Positions 7,258-64,000 are shown, numbered from the stretch's first letter. The stretch is DNA of 64,000 nt from an uncultured Candidatus Saccharibacteria bacterium (GCA_964594755.1 CAZQMO010000005.1:1144-65143), one strand, 5' to 3'. Program-made: numbers and translations. Notes: generated by a model from the sequence alone, not told the origin.

Positions 7258-8112
7258 TTATTCATCAAATTTTCTATTACCAAACATCAATAACTTTTTA
7301 CCTAGACCTGTTAAATTAAGCTTAGCTTTATCCAACTCAATTCGCTGTTGTTGTGAATCAATCTGTGACTGATAACGACGGACATGCTCATGGTTTTCTA
7401 AATCCTGATAAATATAACCTAGAGCGAAACTTTCATTTGCTGGTTTTTCCAAAAGACCCAATGATATCAAATTATCTAAATAAATACTGATATTATTGGG
7501 AAATTTTAGGTTAACTTTTTCAAATAGAATACAAAAATTTCTTTCTAGTAGTAAATACCCTTCTTGATTATTCCTGTATAACTTTATTTCAAGGACAGGT
7601 AAAGAACCTTTCAGATTCACTGAGGATAAATCAGCACTAAAGCCAAATTTAGATCTTATATCTGGGTCTAGGCCATCAAGATTCACCGAATTTTGTGATG
7701 AACCGATATGCTCAAGTATCAATATTTCATCAGAGCTTAATCTATTTAATATTTCTATAAATGTTGGAAGTACTCTACTCGCAGTATCTTTATCAGAAGC
7801 AGTCGCTAAAATCTTTGCATAATAATCAGAAACCACCGATTCATCTGTATATCGAAGTTTTTCTAAAATTGGAACAAGAATACGAGTATCAGGTTCTACT
7901 AAGTTCTGAACAGGAACATTCTCAAGATAATTTATATATTTCAGAATATTCATCTCTAATATTTCTGCCATTCTACCCACGGGTGTAGCAAAAAGTGAAA
8001 CACACTGTGCTAAAGATTTTCCTAAAACTCTAATTGACGGCTGAGCAGCATCTGTATAAACTTCTGCTGCATTAGCCTTTACTATTTCTTTTATCAACTC
8101 ATTTTCATCCAT
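7258..8112 (-). CDS. hypothetical protein, possibly of the Abi-alpha / DUF4393-like (abortive-infection) family
   Basis: AT-rich 284-aa ORF. The N-terminal segment AEVYTDAAQPSIRVLGKSLAQCVSLFATPVG resembles my recollection of the Abi_alpha N-terminal motif. This was not verified by any search. Confidence 0.35.
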   Translation of the reverse strand: MDENELIKEIVKANAAEVYTDAAQPSIRVLGKSLAQCVSLFATPVGRMAEILEMNILKYINYLENVPVQNLVEPDTRILVPILEKLRYTDESVVSDYYAKILATASDKDTASRVLPTFIEILNRLSSDEILILEHIGSSQNSVNLDGLDPDIRSKFGFSADLSSVNLKGSLPVLEIKLYRNNQEGYLLLERNFCILFEKVNLKFPNNISIYLDNLISLGLLEKPANESFALGYIYQDLENHEHVRRYQSQIDSQQQRIELDKAKLNLTGLGKKLLMFGNRKFDE

Positions 8113-8136
8113 AGCTTTACACAATTAAATCATCTA

Positions 8137-16805: not shown

Positions 16806-17318
16806 TTATTTTCTCTTGCTACCAAAGCGGGCAAAGTGAGCAAACGCTTTGTTTGCTTCAGCCATACGGTGAGTGTCTTCACGCTTCTTTACAGCAGCAC
16901 CCATTTTATTGAATGCGTCAATAACTTCTTGAGCAAGCTTCTCGGCCATTGGCGCGCCTTTGCGGGCGCGAGCTGCAGCAATCATCCACTTCATACCAAG
17001 GGCTGTGCGGCGAGGTTCCTGCACTTCCATAGGAACTTGGTAGTTAGAACCACCAATCCGGCGACCTTTGATTTCCATGATTGGAGAAACATTCTTTAAA
17101 GCGATATCAAAGACTTGGCGGGAATCAGTAACTTCCGCCTCTTTGTTTGCTTTCATTTTATCTTCAACAATAACGAGCGCATTGTAAAAAATCTTTTGCG
17201 CAACGCTCTTTTTGCCGCGTTCCATTAAATAGTTAATAAACTTGGCGTACTTCACGCTAGAAAATTGTGGATCTGGCAGTGGAGTGTGTTTTTCAAAACT
17301 TCGTGCTCTTCGTGGCAT
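16806..17318 (-). CDS. rpsG: 30S ribosomal protein S7
   Basis: 170 aa, S7-like; follows rpsL. Confidence 0.93.
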   Translation of the reverse strand: MPRRARSFEKHTPLPDPQFSSVKYAKFINYLMERGKKSVAQKIFYNALVIVEDKMKANKEAEVTDSRQVFDIALKNVSPIMEIKGRRIGGSNYQVPMEVQEPRRTALGMKWMIAAARARKGAPMAEKLAQEVIDAFNKMGAAVKKREDTHRMAEANKAFAHFARFGSKRK

Positions 17319-17334
17319 ATCTTTCTTTCTATCC

Positions 17335-17405
17335 CCTCCCCCTTCTAGGGGGAGGTTAGGTGGGGGTTTCTTGAACCTCCCCTAACCCCTCCTTGAAAGG
17401 AGGGG
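17335..17405. repeat. GC-rich nested-palindrome intergenic repeat, copy A
   Basis: Three hairpins: cctccccc-ttcta-gggggagg; ggttagg-tgggg...cccctaacc; cccctcc-ttgaaa-ggagggg. Related copies occur at 42854-42936 and 38481-38531. Confidence 0.7.
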
Positions 17406-17412
17406 AAAATTC

Positions 17413-17841
17413 TTACGCTGCTGATGCAGCTGGCTTCTTAGCGCCATATTTCGAACGAGAGCGCCGACGACCTTCAACGCCTAAGGTGTCCAACTTACCA
17501 CGAACAATGTGATAACGAACACCAGGTAAATCTTTTACACGACCACCGCGGATCATCACCACGCTGTGTTCCTGCAAGTTGTGACCAACACCAGGAATAT
17601 ACGCAAGTACTTCCATACCGTTAGTCAGTTTGATCTTTGCAACTTTACGCAAAGCAGAGTTTGGCTTCTTTGGAGTGGTTGTGTACACCTTTAAACATAC
17701 ACCGCGCATAAATGGCGCGCCGGTTGGGATGTGCAAAACCTTGTTCTTAATCAAGTTCTGGCGGCGTTGCAATGCCGGAGACTTTGATTTGGCCTTCTGC
17801 AGCTTGCGCGGCTTGCGGACCAATTGGTTAATAGTAGGCAT
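17413..17841 (-). CDS. rpsL: 30S ribosomal protein S12
   Basis: [13 protein letters not shown]...; highly conserved S12. Confidence 0.96.
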
Positions 17842-17910
17842 TTCGTCCAAATTTTACTCACTTGCTCGCGTCCGCTCCGCTATGCGGCCGTCTCGCTCGC
17901 CTGTTCGTAA

Positions 17911-18010
17911 AATTTCTCCTCTCACATTCACGCTTAACCTGCGTCTTTGCGACGGGCTTCGTCGCTACACTCCTCAGCCCTGCAAACACTCGGCCCAAGT
18001 GTGAATGTGC
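17911..18010 (-). promoter_or_regulatory. structured rpsL leader containing the conserved Box A / Box B motif, followed by a 9-bp stem that encloses ~50 nt between an AGGAG and the AUG
   Basis: The minus strand reads cacattcacACTTGGGCCGAGtg...GGTTAAGCGTGAATGTGagaggag. The same boxes occur upstream of tRNA-Arg at 53281-53324 and again at 53673-53699. Confidence 0.5.
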
Positions 18011-26316: not shown

Positions 26317-26346
26317 AAACTAATGTTATCAAAAACTTACCTCTCA

Positions 26347-28056
26347 CTACCAACTACCGCCTCCGCCTCCGCCGCCTCCGCCTCCGCCGCCACCACCGGA
26401 AAAACCACTACCACCTGTGGCTGATGAAGAAACTGAACCAACAGCTGACTGCATAGAACTAGAAAAATCACCGATAGATTGTGAAAAGGCTACCGCACTA
26501 AAGCTGGCGCCGGTAGAATCACCATACCAAGCTGGTTGACGGTTATAAATTCCTTCGAACTGCTTAGCCCACTCCTTCTCTACTTTAAGGGCGATTGCAT
26601 ACGGCAATAATTTTTCAAAAAGTTCTGGATTTTTTTCTGGAGAATTATGGAATTGTAGACGATCTTTTTCTGCAACTATTAGGTAATGCTTTAAACCCAA
26701 TACATGCTCACGAGCTTCCGAACCTTGTTTAGAGCGGGCTGGTATTAAATAAATGAATACCGAGATAATAATTATTGAAATTAATACAGCAAATCCAGCA
26801 ATCCAGCCAAATGTACCGAAAGTGAATACAGTAACCCAAATTGAAAAAAATGAAGCCAGAACTTTCCATAAAACACGAGACCAAGAATGATTATGCTTGT
26901 AGTAACCTAATTTAACCAAATGCTCGGTGACATCTTTCTCTAAATCTAGGACAAACGACTGAAAAAAAGTATTCGTTTTCAAAGAAGACAAATCAAGAGA
27001 ACCACTACTAAATCCCAGTTTGTTGTAGAGTCTGCGAGTTAGTTCTGGAAGCAAATTAGTATCTTTATTGAGATCGTATAATTTATAATCGCTAGATTTA
27101 AAAATTCCCAAAACCTTTTTTTCGATGCGCTCAATTTTGATAAAACCTTCTGTGGCAAGATAAACTAACTCAGCTGTTAAATCTCTGCCGTGAAGCCGAT
27201 TATCAAGCAACACGCCAATGTACATTGGGGTTAACCCTTCAGGTGGTTCGTACTGAGCGATAATTATGCCGCGACCGAGCTCATCTCTGCCGTAAGCTCG
27301 CCACACTAAAAACATAATTAAGAACACCGCAACTGGCAGACCTAACACTAGATTATCCCTGATAGTGTACAAAATGAGTTGCCAAATACTTGGTTCAAAG
27401 ATTACTCCCTTAGGGACAGCCGTAACGACTGTAAAACCATCGCCTGGCGCTAATGGTTTTTGAGCAACAAACATTATGCTATTAGGGTCAGGTTGATTAG
27501 ACTGACAAGTACTTGTGTCAGTAGTGCCGTCAGGACCAACAAAGCAAGTTTGCTTAGAAATTTCAGACGGCATAGTCACAATCACCGTACTCGTCAAAAT
27601 CGGCACAGTCCAATTACTCCCTACCGCATTCCAGTACAGCTCATCATGATTATCAAAATAGTTGATGGCTCGTTCTACTTTGTAACTTATTTGGTATAAG
27701 TTGGCACCAGTCACATAGCTGTCAGGATCGCCAATCTTTAGTTGCAATTCGCCGTCCACATTGGATTGCTGAAACTGATAAGGCTGTCCCAATTCATTTA
27801 CCACTTTGATGTCGCTATAGCGAAGCTTGAAAATCCCACCGCGCGCTGAGTAGCGATAAGGAATATTCCTAAAAATGCCGTGCCGCTGTGCCGAGCCAAA
27901 ATCGTACAAAATATCTTCCTTAACCTCTACACTGCTATCCTGATTGACTGTAATATGCACATTATACTGCCGAATAACCTCGCTATCCGCTTGAGCATTA
28001 GCCGTGTTCGGAAGAAAGACGAACAGACAAAAAATTATTAACAGCAGTTTTTTCAT
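26347..28056 (-). CDS. DUF2207-family membrane protein with a poly-Gly C-terminal tail
   Basis: 569 aa. Signal peptide, large N-terminal domain, TM helices. The C-terminus GGSGFSGGGGGGGGGGGGGGSW is encoded by a (GGC/GCC)n tract at 26350-26400. Confidence 0.65.
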   Translation of the reverse strand: MKKLLLIIFCLFVFLPNTANAQADSEVIRQYNVHITVNQDSSVEVKEDILYDFGSAQRHGIFRNIPYRYSARGGIFKLRYSDIKVVNELGQPYQFQQSNVDGELQLKIGDPDSYVTGANLYQISYKVERAINYFDNHDELYWNAVGSNWTVPILTSTVIVTMPSEISKQTCFVGPDGTTDTSTCQSNQPDPNSIMFVAQKPLAPGDGFTVVTAVPKGVIFEPSIWQLILYTIRDNLVLGLPVAVFLIMFLVWRAYGRDELGRGIIIAQYEPPEGLTPMYIGVLLDNRLHGRDLTAELVYLATEGFIKIERIEKKVLGIFKSSDYKLYDLNKDTNLLPELTRRLYNKLGFSSGSLDLSSLKTNTFFQSFVLDLEKDVTEHLVKLGYYKHNHSWSRVLWKVLASFFSIWVTVFTFGTFGWIAGFAVLISIIIISVFIYLIPARSKQGSEAREHVLGLKHYLIVAEKDRLQFHNSPEKNPELFEKLLPYAIALKVEKEWAKQFEGIYNRQPAWYGDSTGASFSAVAFSQSIGDFSSSMQSAVGSVSSSATGGSGFSGGGGGGGGGGGGGGSW

Positions 28057-37564: not shown

Positions 37565-38158
37565 TTATTTTGCCTGATGAAATAAGTCGTGTTTTTCTTT
37601 TTCTAATAAAACCAACAGTTGGTCAAAATATTTTTTTACTTCGGCATGTGCGGCAACTTTAGGAGCTTTATTTTCAACCAACTCTTCAAAGGTTACACCT
37701 TTTACTTTCCATAACTTTCCACCATCTAAGTAAATGTTAATTGGAGCAACGACTTTATCGAGTGCGTAGATAAATTTACTTTCCTCATCATCTCGCCCTT
37801 CGTATTGCTCAATGAGATCTGTCATTTCTGAAAATTCCGGAAACTCTTTTTTTAATCTTTGCAAAGCTTCATACTCGCGATCCACTTTGCTATCAATAAC
37901 TGCTTGATCTTTATCAAAAATGTAAGTATCCCCCGCATAAACTTCTACTAAATCATGGAGCATCGCATACTTAATAGCTAAATCAATATTCAAAGGCAAT
38001 TTATAGTTTGAAATTATATACCAAGCTACTAATGCCAATTGATAGCTATGCTCAACATCGTTCTCGTTTCGATTAGTACCAGCAACAAAAATTGTTCTTT
38101 CTACTTTTTGGAAGTCATGAGTAAGCTTGATGAATTTAAAAATTTGATCTAATTCCAT
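37565..38158 (-). CDS. HD-domain phosphohydrolase (YfbR-like)
   Basis: 197 aa; H...HD...D motif set (VEHSYQLA, MLHDLVEVYAGD). Confidence 0.7.
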   Translation of the reverse strand: MELDQIFKFIKLTHDFQKVERTIFVAGTNRNENDVEHSYQLALVAWYIISNYKLPLNIDLAIKYAMLHDLVEVYAGDTYIFDKDQAVIDSKVDREYEALQRLKKEFPEFSEMTDLIEQYEGRDDEESKFIYALDKVVAPINIYLDGGKLWKVKGVTFEELVENKAPKVAAHAEVKKYFDQLLVLLEKEKHDLFHQAK

Positions 38159-39042
38159 TAAATTTTAAATAATTTTCTGGCGTTTTGCGTGGTCGTATTG
38201 GCGACTTCATCTACTGAAATATTTTTCCACTCTGCAATCTTCGCAGCAACTTCGGGCAAGAAACTTGGTTCATTTCTTTTGCCGCGCTGTGATTTCGGAG
38301 TTAAGTATGGCGCATCTGTTTCTAGAATAATATTTTCCAAAGGCACAGCTTTCACTACTTCCTCACTTCGCCCAGTTTTATCAAAAGTAATAATGCCGTT
38401 TAGGCCAATGTATCCACCGAGGTCTACGAATTTTATCGCAGTCGCAGCATCGCCGGTGTAGCAATGAACTTCGAAACGCAACCCCTCCCCATCCCCTCCC
38501 CATTTTGGGGAGGGGTTTTGGGTGGGGTTCTTCACTGCTTTAATTATCTCAAGCAAATCTTCGTAGGCATCAACAGTGCCATCGCTTGGTCGGCAATGAA
38601 CACACAACGCTTTGTCTAATTCCAAAGCGAGCTTAATTTGCTCATCAAAAGCAGCTCGTTGCAATTGTTTGATTTCGTTATGGTCACGGTCATCCGGAAG
38701 ACGGTAATAATCCAAACCACACTCCCCGATTCCAATCACGCGCTCATCTTGCGCTAATTCGCGATACAACTTAGCGTCAAAATGTTCTTCATGGGTTTTT
38801 GAAACCACTTCTTCTTCATCTTCGTAATCGTGCGCGTAAGTATGGGAAGGATGAAGACCAACGACTGCATAAACATTTTCTGGAAATTTCTTAAGCATCT
38901 CTACGGCTTGCCGGCTGGTATCAATCTGTGTTCCAACATTAACCACAGCAACCCCAGCATCATGAGCTCGCTTGATTACTTGTTCAGCGTCCTCTTCAAA
39001 CGCACGGATATTTACATGTGTATGTGTGTCTATAAATTTCAT
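38158..39042 (-). CDS. tatD: TatD-family hydrolase carrying an in-frame ~18-aa insertion encoded by a GC-rich palindromic repeat
   Basis: N-terminus MKFIDTHTHVN; catalytic HCYTGD; C-terminal ETDAPYLTP. The insert KNPTQNPSPKWGGDGEGL is encoded by repeat copy B at 38481-38531. Confidence 0.85.
   Translation of the reverse strand: MKFIDTHTHVNIRAFEEDAEQVIKRAHDAGVAVVNVGTQIDTSRQAVEMLKKFPENVYAVVGLHPSHTYAHDYEDEEEVVSKTHEEHFDAKLYRELAQDERVIGIGECGLDYYRLPDDRDHNEIKQLQRAAFDEQIKLALELDKALCVHCRPSDGTVDAYEDLLEIIKAVKNPTQNPSPKWGGDGEGLRFEVHCYTGDAATAIKFVDLGGYIGLNGIITFDKTGRSEEVVKAVPLENIILETDAPYLTPKSQRGKRNEPSFLPEVAAKIAEWKNISVDEVANTTTQNARKLFKI
38481..38531. repeat. GC-rich palindromic repeat, copy B (cccctcccc-atttt-ggggagggg core), located inside the tatD ORF
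   Basis: Local GC spike. Shares the ccccTcccc/ggggAgggg and gggtgggg(tt) blocks with copies A and C. Confidence 0.65.
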
Positions 39043-42003: not shown

Positions 42004-42849
42004 CTAGACTTTTTTCCGCAAAGTCTTGAGTAATTTAATATCTGACTCAACTTTATCATGCTCGGTTTCTAGAATCAAGGGAATTGCCATTTTTCTTTTG
42101 GATAATTCTGCCAGGAATGCTGCGAACCCAGTTTTTCCTATCTCGCCGTCCCCAATATGCTCGTGGCGGTCACGATGGGAGCCCAATTCTACCTTAGAAT
42201 CATTGACATGGCTCATGGCAAAGTACTCAAGACCAATAGTTTTATCAAATTCTTTGAATAGTTTAGTAACTGAAGCCTTATCGCGGAGGTCATAACCGCT
42301 TCCAAAGGCATGTTGAGTGTCAAAGCAGATGCCGCCAAAGTGCTTATTCTTCTTGATTGGCTTCATTAGCTCGGCCAACTCTTCAAAAGTGTCCCCAATT
42401 ACACTACCAGCTCCAGCGGAGATTTCGATGAGCAGCTTGGTACTGCCTTTGTAGCCGTCCAGGACTTTTTTGAGACCGTCCTTTGCCTGCTTCATCCCTG
42501 CCACCTCTCCTAAGTCCTTAAAACTCCCTGGATGAAACATCACGTACTTCGCGCCCAATTGAGTGCCACGCTCTAAATCTGTGCGAACCAAATTAATTGA
42601 GCCATGGAAAGTGGATTTTTTGCTCGAACCAAAGTTGAGGATGTATGGAGCGTGAATAACAAAAGTACTAAACCCCGCAGCTTTCATCTCTGCAGAAAAT
42701 TGCTGCTCAATTTCTTTGGTGATTGTTGGCGCGGCCCCGCCTTGCGGACTGCGGCTAAAAATCTGGAAAGTTTCGCAGCCGAGCTCTTTAGCCCGACCTG
42801 GCGCGTTAAACAAACCGCCGGCAATAGAAACGTGGCAGCCAATCATCGG
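42004..42849 (-). CDS. nfo: endonuclease IV (AP endonuclease family 2)
   Basis: MIGCHVSIAGG... Nfo-like TIM barrel. The ORF-track N-terminal extension to 42897 overlaps repeat copy C and is probably not translated. Confidence 0.8.
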   Translation of the reverse strand, partial: PMIGCHVSIAGGLFNAPGRAKELGCETFQIFSRSPQGGAAPTITKEIEQQFSAEMKAAGFSTFVIHAPYILNFGSSKKSTFHGSINLVRTDLERGTQLGAKYVMFHPGSFKDLGEVAGMKQAKDGLKKVLDGYKGSTKLLIEISAGAGSVIGDTFEELAELMKPIKKNKHFGGICFDTQHAFGSGYDLRDKASVTKLFKEFDKTIGLEYFAMSHVNDSKVELGSHRDRHEHIGDGEIGKTGFAAFLAELSKRKMAIPLILETEHDKVESDIKLLKTLRKKV

Positions 42850-42853
42850 TACT

Positions 42854-42936
42854 CCTCCCCCTCGCGAGGGGGAGGCTGGGTGGGGGTTAGATTTCATAAA
42901 ACCCTCCCCTAACCCCTCCCTTAAAAGGGATAGGGA
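42854..42936. repeat. GC-rich nested-palindrome intergenic repeat, copy C
   Basis: cctccccctcg|cgagggggagg is a perfect 22-nt palindrome. gggggttag...ctaacccc and ccctccc...gggataggg follow. Same order of blocks as copy A. Confidence 0.7.
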
Positions 42937-50369: not shown

Positions 50370-51335
50370 ATGGCCGACCATCGAACTAGAATCGACAAGT
50401 ATATCCAAGACTTCCTAGACTACTGCGAAATTGAGCGAAATAAGAGCGATTTAACAATTCGCAATTATAAGCACTATCTCGCCCGTTTTTCTGATTTCTG
50501 CAAACAACATAGTATTTCCCGCCCTGAAGACGTTGATTTAGATACAGTTCGCAGCTTCCGTCTATATTTAAACCGGTTCGAAGACGACAAAGGCCGTCGT
50601 TTAAAGCTGATTACGCAAAATTATCATGTAATCGCTGTGCGGGCCTTTTTAAAATATTTAGCTAAACGCGACGTTAATACCCTGTCTGCAGAAAAAATTG
50701 AATTAGCTAAGAATCCTAGCCGTGAGGTGTCTGTGATGACCAATGAAGAAGTTCAGCGCATTAAAGATGCTACAGCTGAAGAAAAGAATGAGATGAATCG
50801 ACTTCGTGATGCTGCGATCTTGGAATTACTGTTTTCTAGTGGAATTCGTATTTCAGAGTTGGTTCAATTAAAAATTACCCAGTTAAACTTCAAAAGCGGT
50901 GAATTCACAGTTCGTGGTAAGGGCGACAAGCTAAGACTGTGTTTTATGTCTGAACAAGCCATAAAAGCCCTGCAGGCGTATTTAAAGAAGCGCCACGACA
51001 ATAATCCAGCTTTATTTGTTAGTCATTCCAAAATCGGTAATTCAGTTGAAAAGCAAATGGAGAGCGTGGGAGGGAATAGCAAGGTTCCGGGGTTAACCGC
51101 GCGCAGTGTACAAAGACTGGTACAAAAATACGCCATGCTGGCAGGGATTATGCATAAAGTCACGCCGCATACATTCCGGCATTCATTTGCCACTGATTTG
51201 CTTCAAAATGGCGCGGATATTCGTAGCGTGCAAACCTTGCTAGGCCACGCCTCAATTACTACCACTCAAATCTATACTCACGTCACAAACCAGCAATTAA
51301 GGGATGTGCACAAAAAATTCCATAATAAAAAATAG
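50370..51335 (+). CDS. tyrosine recombinase of the XerC/XerD type
   Basis: 321 aa; N-terminal SAM-like core-binding domain; C-terminal HTFRHSFATDLL...LLGHASITTTQIYTHV (R..H..RH..Y). Confidence 0.85.
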   Translation: MADHRTRIDKYIQDFLDYCEIERNKSDLTIRNYKHYLARFSDFCKQHSISRPEDVDLDTVRSFRLYLNRFEDDKGRRLKLITQNYHVIAVRAFLKYLAKRDVNTLSAEKIELAKNPSREVSVMTNEEVQRIKDATAEEKNEMNRLRDAAILELLFSSGIRISELVQLKITQLNFKSGEFTVRGKGDKLRLCFMSEQAIKALQAYLKKRHDNNPALFVSHSKIGNSVEKQMESVGGNSKVPGLTARSVQRLVQKYAMLAGIMHKVTPHTFRHSFATDLLQNGADIRSVQTLLGHASITTTQIYTHVTNQQLRDVHKKFHNKK

Positions 51336-53250: not shown

Positions 53251-53280
53251 TCTTTAGTTGTTACTCTAGACCATATTCAC

Positions 53281-53390
53281 ACTTGGGCCGAGCAGAGCGA
53301 GGTTAAGCGTGAATGTGGAAGGAGTAGTTTACGGAGGGCGGTAGAAATTGGCTTTAGCCGATTTCGTAAGCCCGAAGAAAACTACGACGT
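53281..53390 (+). promoter_or_regulatory. structured tRNA leader: Box A ACTTGGGCCGAG, Box B GGTTAAGCGTGAATGTGGAAGGAG, then a 7-bp-stem hairpin (GUAGUUU...AAACUAC) and CGAC immediately before the tRNA
   Basis: Same boxes as the rpsL leader (17911-18010) and as 53673-53699. Confidence 0.5.
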
Positions 53391-53510: not shown

Positions 53511-53548
53511 GGCTCCGAAGCTCAGTTGGATAGAGCAGGGGCTTCGAG
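53511..53548 (+). pseudogene. tRNA 5'-half fragment: diverged duplicate of the acceptor, D-arm and anticodon stem of the downstream tRNA-Arg(UCU)
   Basis: GGCUCCGAAGCUCAGUUGGAUAGAGCAGGGGCUUCGAG versus GGCCUCGUAGCUCAGUUGGAUAGAGCAGGGGACUUCUAAG. No 3' half follows. Confidence 0.6.
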
Positions 53549-53570: not shown

Positions 53571-53647
53571 GGCCTCGTAGCTCAGTTGGATAGAGCAGGG
53601 GACTTCTAAGCCCAAGGTCACTGGTTCGATCCCAGTCGAGGCCACCA
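53571..53647 (+). tRNA. tRNA-Arg (anticodon UCU), flanked by an 11-bp leader/trailer inverted repeat (53548-53558 and 53646-53656)
   Basis: Acceptor GGCCUCG/CGAGGCC; D-arm GCUC-AGUUGGAUA-GAGC; anticodon loop CUUCUAA; T-arm ACUGG-UUCGAUC-CCAGU; CCA encoded. The anticodon stem shows two non-Watson-Crick closing pairs in my fold. Confidence 0.7.
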
Positions 53648-53672
53648 GCAAGAGTTTATGGACAACTTTCTT

Positions 53673-53814
53673 ACTTGGGCCGAGCAAAGCGAGGTTAAGT
53701 AAAAAAGCTAAAGGAGTATCGGCGAAGCTGAGTTGCGACCCAACGAAAGTTGGCGTCGCACGGGTGCAGCCCGATACGACGCGGTCACTGGTTCGATCCC
53801 AGTCGAGGCCACCA
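53673..53814 (+). other. leader-like module (Box A, GGTTAAG, a GUAUCGG...CCGAUAC hairpin with an internal GNRA hairpin) fused to a 34-nt exact copy of the tRNA-Arg(UCU) 3' end (T-arm, acceptor 3' strand, CCA)
   Basis: 53781-53814 is identical to 53614-53647. No matching 5' acceptor strand is present. Confidence 0.6.
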
Positions 53815-53874
53815 GTTCAATTGTTACCATAAACATTTCCCTATCGTTATAAATGTGAGTAACAAAGGAGTTTA

Positions 53875-59517: not shown

Positions 59518-60003
59518 TTATTTCTTTTGCTCTTTGAGAGTCTGCAATTCATCCATGATTTTTTGCATGTGGGTTTGCAGTTCGTTCAAAGTTTTCATCG
59601 TGGCTGCATCATGAAGATCAGCTTCTTCATCATCCTTCTCGATTCCTTCGACGTCCTCTTGAATCTCATCAATATCTTTTTCGATTTCATCAATGTCTTT
59701 CTCGATTCCTTCGACGTCTTCGGCAATCTCTTCAATATCTTCTTCGACATCAGCTAAACTTTGAGTGTTTCGATTGACAGTAATCTGAATAAACAAGGCC
59801 AGATAAATTGCTTCCAAAGATACAGCTGTTGTGAGCACCAATAAAATGGTATTTAGTTCGACACCAAACTTCACAAAAGCAAAAGCAGTAATAAATACGA
59901 TTGTATGAACAACAATAGAAGCCGGTGAGCCAATCCATGAGGTAACCCTGTCTGCCCAAGCTTCCAATTGTGTCATCGTCTTTTTTGTGTGTCTTGCAAC
60001 CAT
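59518..60003 (-). CDS. DUF1003-family membrane protein with acidic tandem repeats
   Basis: 161 aa. Two TM segments then IQITVNRNTQ (DUF1003-like). The repeated EDVEGIEKDIDEIEKDIDEIQEDVEGIEKD is encoded by a ~60-bp tandem DNA repeat at 59640-59760. Confidence 0.55.
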   Translation of the reverse strand: MVARHTKKTMTQLEAWADRVTSWIGSPASIVVHTIVFITAFAFVKFGVELNTILLVLTTAVSLEAIYLALFIQITVNRNTQSLADVEEDIEEIAEDVEGIEKDIDEIEKDIDEIQEDVEGIEKDDEEADLHDAATMKTLNELQTHMQKIMDELQTLKEQKK

Positions 60004-63192: not shown

Positions 63193-64000
63193 TCACTTCC
63201 CGAAAAATACAGCATCGAGAACACTGGAAAAGACACTCCGACTATTGCTATAGGTGCTTTCTCTGACGCTTGCTCGACGTCCGCCAAAACTACTTTTATA
63301 ACCTCCACCATGATGTAGAGCAATATCGTACCCACCACGCCACCAAGGTTCAAACACGACAAGACCATTAAACAGTTCCTCACCATCACGAGCAAATAAT
63401 TTAGCGTGCGGACCACCGCCTTGAGCAGGTATAACTCCAATCTCCATCCCACTTTCACTAGCCTTCGCATTTCCAGAAGCGACTCGTAATCCTAAATTAA
63501 AATTACCATCATACGCAAAAAATTCTTTTTCAATTAGAATATCTTCATCATAAATGCGGACATGTGGTCCGCCGCCAGGACCTGGAACGGTAACCAATCC
63601 ACCTGGGACCACTCGAGATGAACGTCTAGTGGAACTTCTTCCAGATGGAATCACTGCCACATCCACTCCGCCACGAAAATTCGTCTCATAAGGAAAAAAG
63701 TCCTTTATTATGGTGCCGTTAGGTTTAAAGATTTTGACATGAGGTCCACCGCCAGGACCTGCCCCTGTTGCAATTTCAGCTACTCCATCATTATCGATAT
63801 CTGCGGCACTAATAAACACCCCGCCTGTAAAGCTTCCATCATAGGCAAAGAAATCTCTAATATCCGAATTATTTATGGGTGTGCCGTTGGCACGGAAAAT
63901 CCGGATATGAGGTCCGCCGCCAGGGCCTGGCGCGGTTATTATTTCGGCAACACCGTCATCGTCCACATCTGCTACTGCCACATCCACCCCGCCACGAAAA
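63193..64000 (-). CDS. FG-GAP / VCBS-like repeat protein, N-terminus beyond the window end
   Basis: Repeated D.DNDGVAEI..G.GPGGGPH.(R/K)IF units of the beta-propeller type. Confidence 0.6.
   Translation of the reverse strand, partial: FRGGVDVAVADVDDDGVAEIITAPGPGGGPHIRIFRANGTPINNSDIRDFFAYDGSFTGGVFISAADIDNDGVAEIATGAGPGGGPHVKIFKPNGTIIKDFFPYETNFRGGVDVAVIPSGRSSTRRSSRVVPGGLVTVPGPGGGPHVRIYDEDILIEKEFFAYDGNFNLGLRVASGNAKASESGMEIGVIPAQGGGPHAKLFARDGEELFNGLVVFEPWWRGGYDIALHHGGGYKSSFGGRRASVRESTYSNSRSVFSSVLDAVFFGK

Follow-up and report, generated by a model that had tools for sequence, protein, structure and literature searches.

What is a GC-rich nested palindrome doing between two ribosomal protein genes of a minimal genome? 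We analysed a stretch of 64,000 nt (hereafter the window) from an uncultured Candidatus Saccharibacteria bacterium (GCA_964594755.1, CAZQMO010000005.1:1144-65143), a genome of the candidate phyla radiation (CPR, or Patescibacteria), in which such a palindrome takes up the spacer between rpsL and rpsG. The palindrome belongs to one of exactly three loci of a single repeat family in the window (copies A, B and C), where chance would give none. A preliminary description had proposed that this family resembles repetitive extragenic palindromic (REP) sequences or miniature inverted-repeat transposable elements (MITEs), with one copy lying in frame within tatD. This proposal is borne out by 85 copies found in 76 sequence sources, by tatD orthologues free of the element and by empty sites in the closest relative. 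We consider it probable (roughly 0.72) that the copies represent a dispersed, non-coding family of nested palindromes, similar to REP sequences and to their hairpin-forming doublets (REPINs), which is non-autonomous, is gained and lost at orthologous sites, and is copied in trans or by recombination.

Three copies of one repeat and their architecture

Copy A occupies positions 17333-17409 of the plus strand, where it was recognised by folding and by a profile made from the copies of other genomes (nhmmer, E = 6e-17). The same profile matches copy C (42852-42935, plus strand, E = 1e-16), which lies between the stop codon of an M16 peptidase gene (42940) and the body of nfo. Both are full doublets. 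Copy B (38480-38529, plus strand) is a singlet, detected by a profile of the repeat unit (E = 0.037) and by repeat finding, in which the left halves of the copies form the direct-repeat family D4 (17331-17372; 38491-38532, 76% identity; 42851-42892, 69% identity). All three had been located in the preliminary description, and our analysis refined their coordinates to those given here. With the half-element profile, A and C each yield two units and B yields one, five in all, and the rest of the window yields none. The words CCCCTCC, CCTCCCC, GGGGAGG and GGTGGGG are nearly confined to A, B and C in the 64 kb, and the pattern CCTCCCCN{2,9}GGGGAGG has three matches against 0.00 expected from 100 shuffles. 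The membership of copy B is strengthened by its orthologue in L001 (L numbers designate loci of other genomes), which has CCCCACCCCTAACCCCTCCCC-AAAAT-GGGGAGGGG and aligns to the family profile over the right half of the latter (E = 4e-6 to 4e-7).

Copies A and C present the same order of parts: a first hairpin (H1, CCTCCCCC-loop-GGGGGAGG), a linker of about 3 nt, a second hairpin (H2, GGTGGGGGTT-variable loop-AACCTCCCC), the trinucleotide TAA and a third hairpin (H3, CCCCTCC-loop-GGAGGGG). In copy A, H1 (17335-17355) pairs positions 17335-42 with 17348-55, H2 (17356-17385) pairs 17359-68 with 17374-82, and H3 (17386-17405) pairs 17386-92 with 17399-405. The hairpins of copy C are at 42854-42875 (H1), 42878-42909 (H2) and 42913-42935 (H3). 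The left half of these copies is a hairpin with a G-rich tail and the right half is its approximate inverse. Hence, A and C are inverted doublets of one unit around a variable loop, which is the layout of REPINs. The unit is made of a GC-rich hairpin (CCTCCCC-loop-GGGGAGG) and a short tail (TTA-GGTGGGGG), and the doublet is 75-100 nt long and can fold either as three hairpins or as a single long one. Copy B consists of one hairpin that carries both complementary tails (AACCCCTCCCC and GGGTGGGGTT), which extend its stem; its sequence runs AACCCCTCCCC-AT-CCCCTCCCC-ATTTT-GGGGAGGGG-TTTT-GGGTGGGGTT. The two to three nested hairpins first ascribed to all copies are thus correct for A and C, which have three, and incorrect for B. 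As expected from the early description all copies fold well, either as DNA or as RNA, with z scores of -5 to -5.8 for B, -2.3 to -4.1 for A and -1.5 to -2.5 for C, the weakest, because shuffled G/C runs fold well too.

The consensus of the family is tt-CCTCCCCC-ttgat-GGGGGAGG-yta-GGTGGGGGTGA-(loop)-TCACCCTCCCCTAACCCCTCCC-atcaa-GGGAGGGG-aa, and this architecture is shared outside the words required by our scan of other genomes (see below). The ends of the element are sharp (T/CCTCCCC...GGAGGGG/A), the base at -1 being T in 37 of 45 copies and that at +1 being A in 45 of 46. There are no conserved flanking positions beyond them, nor any direct repeat in 46 pairs of flanks that would indicate a target-site duplication. 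The right linker is variable (TAA, CAG, CAA, TGT) in copies not chosen by the scan pattern. The left and right arms co-vary, hairpin loops included: among 41 distinct loop pairs, nine are exact complements and 20 are within one edit, when shuffling the partners yields 1.1 and 5.2 on average and the observed values were not attained in any of 1000 shuffles. This co-variation includes letters that are unpaired in the local hairpins. Both folds find support in an alignment of 30 sequences. Pairing amounts to 89.6% in the three-hairpin fold and to 83.3% in the single long hairpin. For the latter, the covariation is 0.250 against 0.142 in shuffled data, none of 500 shuffles reaching 0.250, and changes on both sides affect 77 cells where 38 would be expected. 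The long helix has two conserved C-A mismatches (alignment A4, columns 12-94 and 26-80), and H2 has a conserved T-C mismatch and a G-T wobble on one strand. The two halves are therefore not plain inverted copies of each other.

The family also occurs in other forms, as half-elements and as a tandem cluster of five copies; the Saccharibacteria contig L096 has five full or half copies in tandem within 470 nt (1822-2288). The reverse complement of the right arm (GGGAGGGGTTAGGGGAGGG), in the consensus and at 42901-42919 of the window (minus strand, mRNA sense), matches the classical four-tract G-quadruplex motif, and the plus strand matches an i-motif pattern; these putative structures might compete with the hairpins. 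We rejected an intrinsic terminator, as the element is preceded by T and ends before A on both strands, with no T-run. A likeness of H2 to the 3' end of the 16S rRNA and its Shine-Dalgarno partner (TCACCCTCCCCTAA versus TCACCTCCTTA) is unproven and is not found in the alphaproteobacterial variants. A CRISPR or a tRNA-like element found no support and was dropped.

Turnover of the copies between relatives

The closest relative (GCA_964597895.1, loci L207 and L214 of one contig) is syntenic with the window over 41 kb, approximately from 8.5 to 49 kb, at 76-97% nucleotide identity. There is no unit of the family in these 41 kb, and sites A, B and C are all empty or different. Farther relatives show a patchwork of filled, empty and differently filled sites, revealing rapid gain and loss of the element. 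Empty and filled orthologous sites align cleanly, and all three copies of the window replace older sequence, none being a clean insertion. In evolutionary terms, the mobility of the element is well supported.

Copy A lies between rpsL (S12, 17413-17850, minus strand), upstream, and rpsG (S7, 16806-17318, minus strand), downstream, both identified with Pfam. It fills nearly the whole spacer, from 7 nt after the rpsL stop codon to 14 nt before the rpsG ATG, where its last G-run ends. The overlap with the rpsG initiation region that was initially described is thus better stated as an element that ends 14 nt upstream of the start codon. The S7 protein is 99% identical to that of L207 (P0123), rpsL is 97.4% identical in nucleotides up to its stop codon, and rpsG can be aligned from 11 nt before its start. 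Between these points, L207 has a spacer of 129 nt that is AT-rich and unrelated to that of the window, which has 83 nt and is almost all element. The spacer is also unrelated in L208 (like L207, with an S7 that is 99% identical) and is different again in L209 and L210. In L209, with 95% S7 identity, there is a variant of the element in the spacer and another upstream of rpsL, and in L210 the spacer has other hairpins. Since the spacer is not conserved among close relatives, even where S7 is 99% identical, there is no support for a conserved S7 operator at this site; we rejected this candidate, and with it the link to S7 autoregulation that had been suggested. In L209 (9835-10000), a fragment, gtcattgcgagcgcag, adjoins the element.

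Copy B lies within tatD (TatD_DNase, 294 aa, 38158-39042, minus strand; Pfam E = 3.7e-74, orthologue alignment A1), whose reading frame is intact across the element. On the minus strand it encodes NPTQNPSPKWGGDGEG, approximately residues 172-187 of TatD. The window has VK-NPTQNPSPKWGGDGEG-LRFE where L214 and L003 have VK-AGNPE/AGNED-LRFE. Hence, 16 residues replace five, a net gain of 11 residues (33 nt), and not an addition of about 18 as first thought. What had been described as an insertion keeps the frame intact and is missing from the closest orthologues, and is nevertheless the replacement of a pre-existing variable loop. In the AlphaFold2 model of TatD (mean predicted local distance difference test, pLDDT, of 84), the 16 residues form a coil between a helix (158-171) and a strand (190-193), with a pLDDT of 60-71. 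In triosephosphate isomerase (TIM) barrels, the helix-to-strand loops lie opposite the catalytic face. Copy B would thus make a surface loop on the non-catalytic face of the modelled protein. A second region of low confidence in the model (residues 67-84, about 38791-38844) has pLDDT below 50. In the matching region, L206 carries an insert encoded by a palindrome (SAKGGPASGGK), and this may be a second permissive site.

Most orthologues of TatD lack the segment, those of the closest relatives among them; the best named TatD relative bears the label Candidatus Doudnabacteria. The usual length of the orthologues is 283 residues, with a five-residue connection at the position of the loop. Many others have a loop of 16 residues, NPExxGTPGVWVDGSN, encoded by ordinary non-palindromic DNA (for example NPEIKGTPGVWVDGSN). 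A segment of the same length in non-repeat DNA, which would have spoken against an insertion, thus exists in some relatives, with a different peptide, and is lacking in the closest ones. Some loops have yet other contents. The tatD loop of L205 (256-1209) has a palindrome of another family, TGTCATTCCCGCGAAAGCGGGAATCC, together with a degraded half-element of the family of copy B. That of L206 (1457-2383) has a long hairpin, GTCATCCTGA...AGAATGACA, and this gene has a second insertion elsewhere. Overall, at least three other GC-rich palindrome families (TGTCATTCCCGCGAAAGCGGGAATCC, GTCATCCTGAACGTAGTGAAGGATCT...AGAATGACA and CCGCCaaaGGCGGacCCGCCtctGGCGGG) occupy the tatD loop or the rpsL-rpsG spacer in relatives (L205, L206 and L209). 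In a neighbour-joining tree of TatD, the element-type loop is found in three separate clades, each beside sisters without it. In the pair of L002 and L211, the TatD proteins are 93% identical and the flanking DNA is nearly the same, without any difference downstream of the loop, yet the 48-nt loop of L211 is swapped in frame for a 36-nt element in L002. Additional differences just upstream of the loop suggest a tract of conversion or recombination. Repeated insertion and allelic recombination both fit the scatter of the element in tatD, and in either case the site is permissive and often rewritten.

Copy C separates the M16 peptidase gene from nfo. In L214 and L002, the ATG of nfo overlaps the last codons of the M16 gene, and the gap between the aligned blocks is 17 nt in L214 versus 102 nt in the window. 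The element is present at this site in L203 and L204 (about 73% nucleotide identity, with the same loop sequence, ATGAAATCTA), and the site is empty in L002. The ancestral start of nfo is retained in the window, and its frame now ends at a TAA in the loop of copy C. Translation of nfo must therefore start at one of two other ATGs. The first candidate (42895-42897, minus strand) is in the central loop of copy C and opens a reading frame at 42004-42897; it is preceded by GGGGAGGG-TTTT from the right arm of the element and would add MKSNPHPASPSRGGGVP to Nfo. L203 shares this ATG and has no later methionine, which makes it the only option in that locus. The alternative start (ATGATTGGC, 42844-42846, minus strand) is 7 nt downstream of the GGAGG in the 3' arm of H1. 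Whichever ATG is used, copy C has severed nfo from its ancestral start and supplies both a Shine-Dalgarno sequence and a new start codon.

The family beyond the window and its known counterparts

We scanned species-representative genomes with the pattern GGTGGGGN{5,30}CCCCTAACCCCTCC. This revealed at least 118 loci outside the window, when our own estimate of chance matches is roughly 7 to 30. A strict three-part pattern is present in 59 loci among the matches listed. A profile search located the 85 full-length copies mentioned above in 76 sources, namely 75 fetched loci and the window. The full-length profile found no copy in 765 kb of unrelated metagenomic control DNA, which consists of loci retrieved with S7 from a metagenome scan and includes only distant relatives (best S7 identity 65%). 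According to the record titles of the matches listed, the carriers include Planctomycetota (with Brocadiales), Patescibacteria (Parcubacteria, Falkowbacteria and Saccharibacteria) and many Alphaproteobacteria. The same matches include Chloroflexota, Nitrospirota, Omnitrophota, Spirochaetota, Bdellovibrio, delta-proteobacterial lineages, uncultured Gammaproteobacteria and one metagenome-assembled genome (MAG) of Actinomycetota. About ten phyla are thus labelled as carriers, a count that is approximate because most labels were given by depositors to MAGs. Cultured isolates and complete genomes are also among the carriers (Devosia, Mesorhizobium, Sphingomonas faeni, Hyphomicrobium), some copies sit inside contigs of up to Mb scale, and the GC content of the hosts ranges from 0.37 to 0.70. 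Half-units were found in replicons of Rhizobium, Sinorhizobium (S. meliloti), Methylobacterium and Pannonibacter. The arms of copy A are 82-84% identical to those of planctomycete, Chloroflexota and delta-proteobacterial copies, part of this identity being imposed by the search pattern. Some cyanobacterial matches of the scan (Okeania, Moorena) are unrelated heptamer arrays and were not regarded as members of the family.

To place the copies relative to genes, we used the loci with a GC content of at most 0.52, where simple calls of open reading frames (ORFs) are reliable. Approximately 52 of 54 copies are intergenic in this set. The two copies that seemed to be within ORFs (L023 and L045) are only apparent exceptions, their ORFs being over-extended through an upstream element. 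The orientation relative to the flanking genes is unbiased (16 versus 12 in co-directional pairs, 5 versus 5 in divergent and convergent ones). Clustering the ORFs of the 118 loci yielded ordinary housekeeping families and no recurring neighbour. The genes bracketed by two copies encode an ABC ATPase, rpsB, hslV and similar functions, with no transposase among them. A scan of viral contigs gave no match, and there is therefore no sign of a phage vector. At the Rfam gathering threshold, only tRNAs were found in the window and 18 loci; at a relaxed threshold, the only matches were to generic long hairpins (microRNA precursors) and were far under the threshold.

The closest counterparts of the family are REP sequences and REPINs, such as the REP sequences and bacterial interspersed mosaic elements (BIMEs) of E. 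coli and the REPINs of Pseudomonas. Like them, it consists of short, GC-rich, imperfect palindromes that are non-coding, present in many copies and mostly intergenic or within operons. It also comes as singlets and as inverted doublets around a spacer that can fold as one long hairpin, and both arms carry a sequence variant specific to the lineage. It differs from them by a conserved central hairpin, which gives the three-hairpin form, and by arms that are not exact inverted copies. REP and REPIN units have a conserved tetranucleotide tag, GTAG (or CGTC), at one end (PMC3733652). Here, GTAG is found in 6 of 94 units and CGTC in none of the 94. Published accounts present REPINs as lineage-specific and vertically inherited, unlike this family of about ten phyla. 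The comparison with bacterial MITEs (Correia/NEMIS, ERIC, RUP) is also partial. As these do, the element seems non-autonomous, has inverted-repeat ends (TTCCTCCCC...GGGGAGGAA; tT-CCTCCCC ... GGAGGGG-Aa), is co-transcribed with its neighbours and can supply expression signals or extend frames. Unlike them, it lacks a target-site duplication, and it is shorter than most. In the fetched loci, no parent insertion sequence with matching ends was found, and no gene bounded by copies resembles a transposase. The REP- or MITE-like signature attributed to the element at the outset thus holds for the short repeat and the inverted ends; the target-site duplication and the tag are lacking, and no gene for a REP-associated tyrosine transposase (RAYT) was found in the window, beside the copies or in the rhizobial replicons searched.

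Palindromic insertions in frame are known from Rickettsia (PMC3184786). As in these Rickettsia palindromic elements (RPEs), copy B is a palindrome of a reduced genome lying in frame in a coding gene that remains intact. RPEs are about 100-150 bp long, are known only from Rickettsia and are commonly inserted in coding sequences. By contrast, only the tatD copy and its orthologues are inside a gene among the about 85 copies examined here. The genome of S. meliloti is reported to contain many annotated intergenic palindromic repeats of unknown function (RIMEs, Sm-repeats, AB and C palindromes; PMC2573895). Some of these may be alphaproteobacterial members of the family. A more distant analogy is provided by the GC clusters and double-hairpin elements of fungal mitochondria, which are GC-rich in AT-richer genomes, appear mobile and may sit in frame. 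We know of no enzyme for these elements; the parallel is an analogy only, as they are unrelated sequences of a eukaryotic organelle. The sequences of our element were not found in the full text of the accessible literature, nor were palindromic in-frame insertions of CPR bacteria by keyword. What is new is therefore a REP/REPIN-like repeat without known tag or enzyme and with an unusually broad distribution.

The window has about 42% GC and a negative GC skew in 31 of 32 two-kb segments, and most genes examined here are on the minus strand. It includes a gene for a XerC/D-like recombinase (50370-51335), and its tuf region is separated from the S10 ribosomal-protein operon by an Abi_alpha (abortive infection) gene (7258-8124). 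A gene for a DUF2207 membrane protein (26347-28056) is missing from the otherwise collinear L207 (window 26319-28051). A motif of about 60 nt, ATTCACACTTGGGCCGAG...AGGTTAAGCGTGAATGTGnAGGAG, is shared by three sites: upstream of a tRNA-Arg (53269-53326, plus strand), after a second tRNA-Arg and ahead of a partial tRNA copy (53661-53718, plus strand), and upstream of the rpsL operon (17910-18009, minus strand), where a 41-nt insert separates its halves. The motif might serve these sites as a common promoter or leader. The complete tRNA-Arg(tct) at 53571-53647 is flanked by two partial tRNA copies (53511-53541 and 53783-53815), one resembling the 5' half and the other matching the 3' half with 100% identity. 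Both ARAGORN and Rfam recognise no more than two tRNAs in this region, and the partial copies may be a remnant of duplication or integration. Finally, an ORF contains four tandem repeats of 21 nt (59623-59748), and the ORF at 63193-63987 contains three repeats of about 170-177 nt (63552-63936).

Origin of the copies and implications

How could such a family arise? If the copies are a dispersed, non-autonomous repeat, a trans-acting enzyme would produce them from an intermediate that forms hairpins, or they would arise through recombination or gene conversion among existing copies. Only the copies leaving the host genes functional would survive. A settled copy would then be transcribed with the host genes and could be put to use: B as a 16-residue surface loop of TatD, C as the Shine-Dalgarno sequence and start codon of nfo, and A as the entire S12-S7 intercistronic spacer. 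A number of observations weigh against this reading. The sites are of the replacement type and lack target-site duplications, which also fits recombination or gene conversion. The scatter of the tatD copies over three clades could result from allelic recombination instead of repeated insertion. The strong conservation across phyla is atypical of REP sequences and REPINs and could point to a conserved host function. No RAYT gene was found in the window or beside the copies in the 118 loci. The RayT of E. coli used as a tblastn query found nothing in the element-bearing rhizobial records, including a 3.7-Mb record of S. meliloti, although divergent RAYTs could escape such a search; its matches on plasmids do not overlap the element-bearing replicons. 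Nor was a transposase or another candidate for mobilisation identified among the genes checked in the window, which are housekeeping genes, the XerC/D-like recombinase or Abi. Finally, the source genome is seen through 64 kb, and most taxon labels come from MAGs.

Some of these points are those expected if the family spread without a dedicated transposase, by hairpin-promoted template switching or by ectopic or allelic gene conversion between copies and degenerate relics. No transposase was found, the three sites of the window and the L002/L211 pair are replacement events without target-site duplication, and the tatD loop and the S12-S7 spacer were struck repeatedly by several palindrome families. 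We give this explanation a low probability, because the sharp ends, and the recurrence of one and the same element in genomes and contexts that differ widely, are easier to obtain with a site-specific enzyme, and because gene conversion needs a homologous target, of which the empty sites show none. It is somewhat less probable that selection maintains the copies chiefly as cis-acting RNA structures, be they hairpins that stabilise or process the mRNA, an S7 operator or hairpins that sequester the Shine-Dalgarno sequence and tune rpsG and nfo. A and C are inside co-directional gene strings, so that they must be transcribed, and they have stable RNA folds. The GGAGG of copy C takes part in base pairs inside the element, at a distance of 7 nt from one nfo ATG and 5 nt from the other. 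The motifs correspond to extended Shine-Dalgarno and anti-Shine-Dalgarno sequences that are common to most bacteria, which could explain the conservation across phyla. However, the copies show no orientation bias and are also found between convergent and divergent genes. Their position is not conserved: none of the three is found in the closest relative, whose S12-S7 spacer is unrelated. One of them is inside a coding region, they are not terminators, and they have no match in Rfam. Regulatory effects are more likely to be secondary.

The conservation across phyla, which extends to the mismatches of the long helix (columns 12-94 and 26-80) and to the T-C/G-T positions of H2, would also be explained if the copies were binding sites of a conserved host protein (nucleoid, topoisomerase or replication factor), as proposed for the BIMEs of E. 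coli. Their similarity would then reflect the protein, and a symmetric structure used in either orientation is consistent with this. We regard such a role as unlikely, given a distribution that is patchy even among close relatives (no copy in 41 kb of the nearest genome or in the 765-kb control), a variable copy density, the tandem clusters and half-copies, and the lack of a candidate protein. Chance similarity among G/C runs of low complexity can be set aside as refuted, as can an artefact introduced by assembly or binning. It is true that the motifs are of low complexity, that shuffled versions of copy C fold nearly as well (z of -1.5 to -2.5) and that some cyanobacterial matches are heptamer arrays. 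Yet no match of the pattern is expected in the window, an architecture that the pattern did not require is kept in 59 to 76 loci, copies are present in complete genomes of isolates and in Mb-scale contigs, and filled and empty sites align cleanly.

A dispersed, REP-like family that is gained and lost thus remains our preferred reading. That it is a single family, with approximately 75-85% arm identity across some ten phyla including the CPR and without RAYT or tag, is a more tentative proposition, possible but on balance doubtful. If true, either a very widespread mobilising enzyme has so far escaped recognition, or these hairpins are copied and maintained by some host factor or process that is universal. 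Essential genes would then repeatedly acquire new protein loops, start codons and ribosome-binding sites from the element. Small palindromic repeats tend to be seen as lineage-specific clutter, whereas the architecture described here recurs from Patescibacteria to Planctomycetota and Alphaproteobacteria. This broad recurrence in the absence of known REP machinery makes the question of how the copies are made tractable by analyses of co-occurrence and by biochemistry, Sinorhizobium and Sphingomonas being culturable. There are also practical consequences for annotation, as copies cause over-extended ORFs and odd low-complexity peptides (PSPLMGEG, NPSPKWGG). For the organism itself, within 64 kb of a minimal genome, a loop of TatD was replaced in frame, the start of nfo was displaced and given a new ribosome-binding site, and the S12-S7 spacer was replaced.

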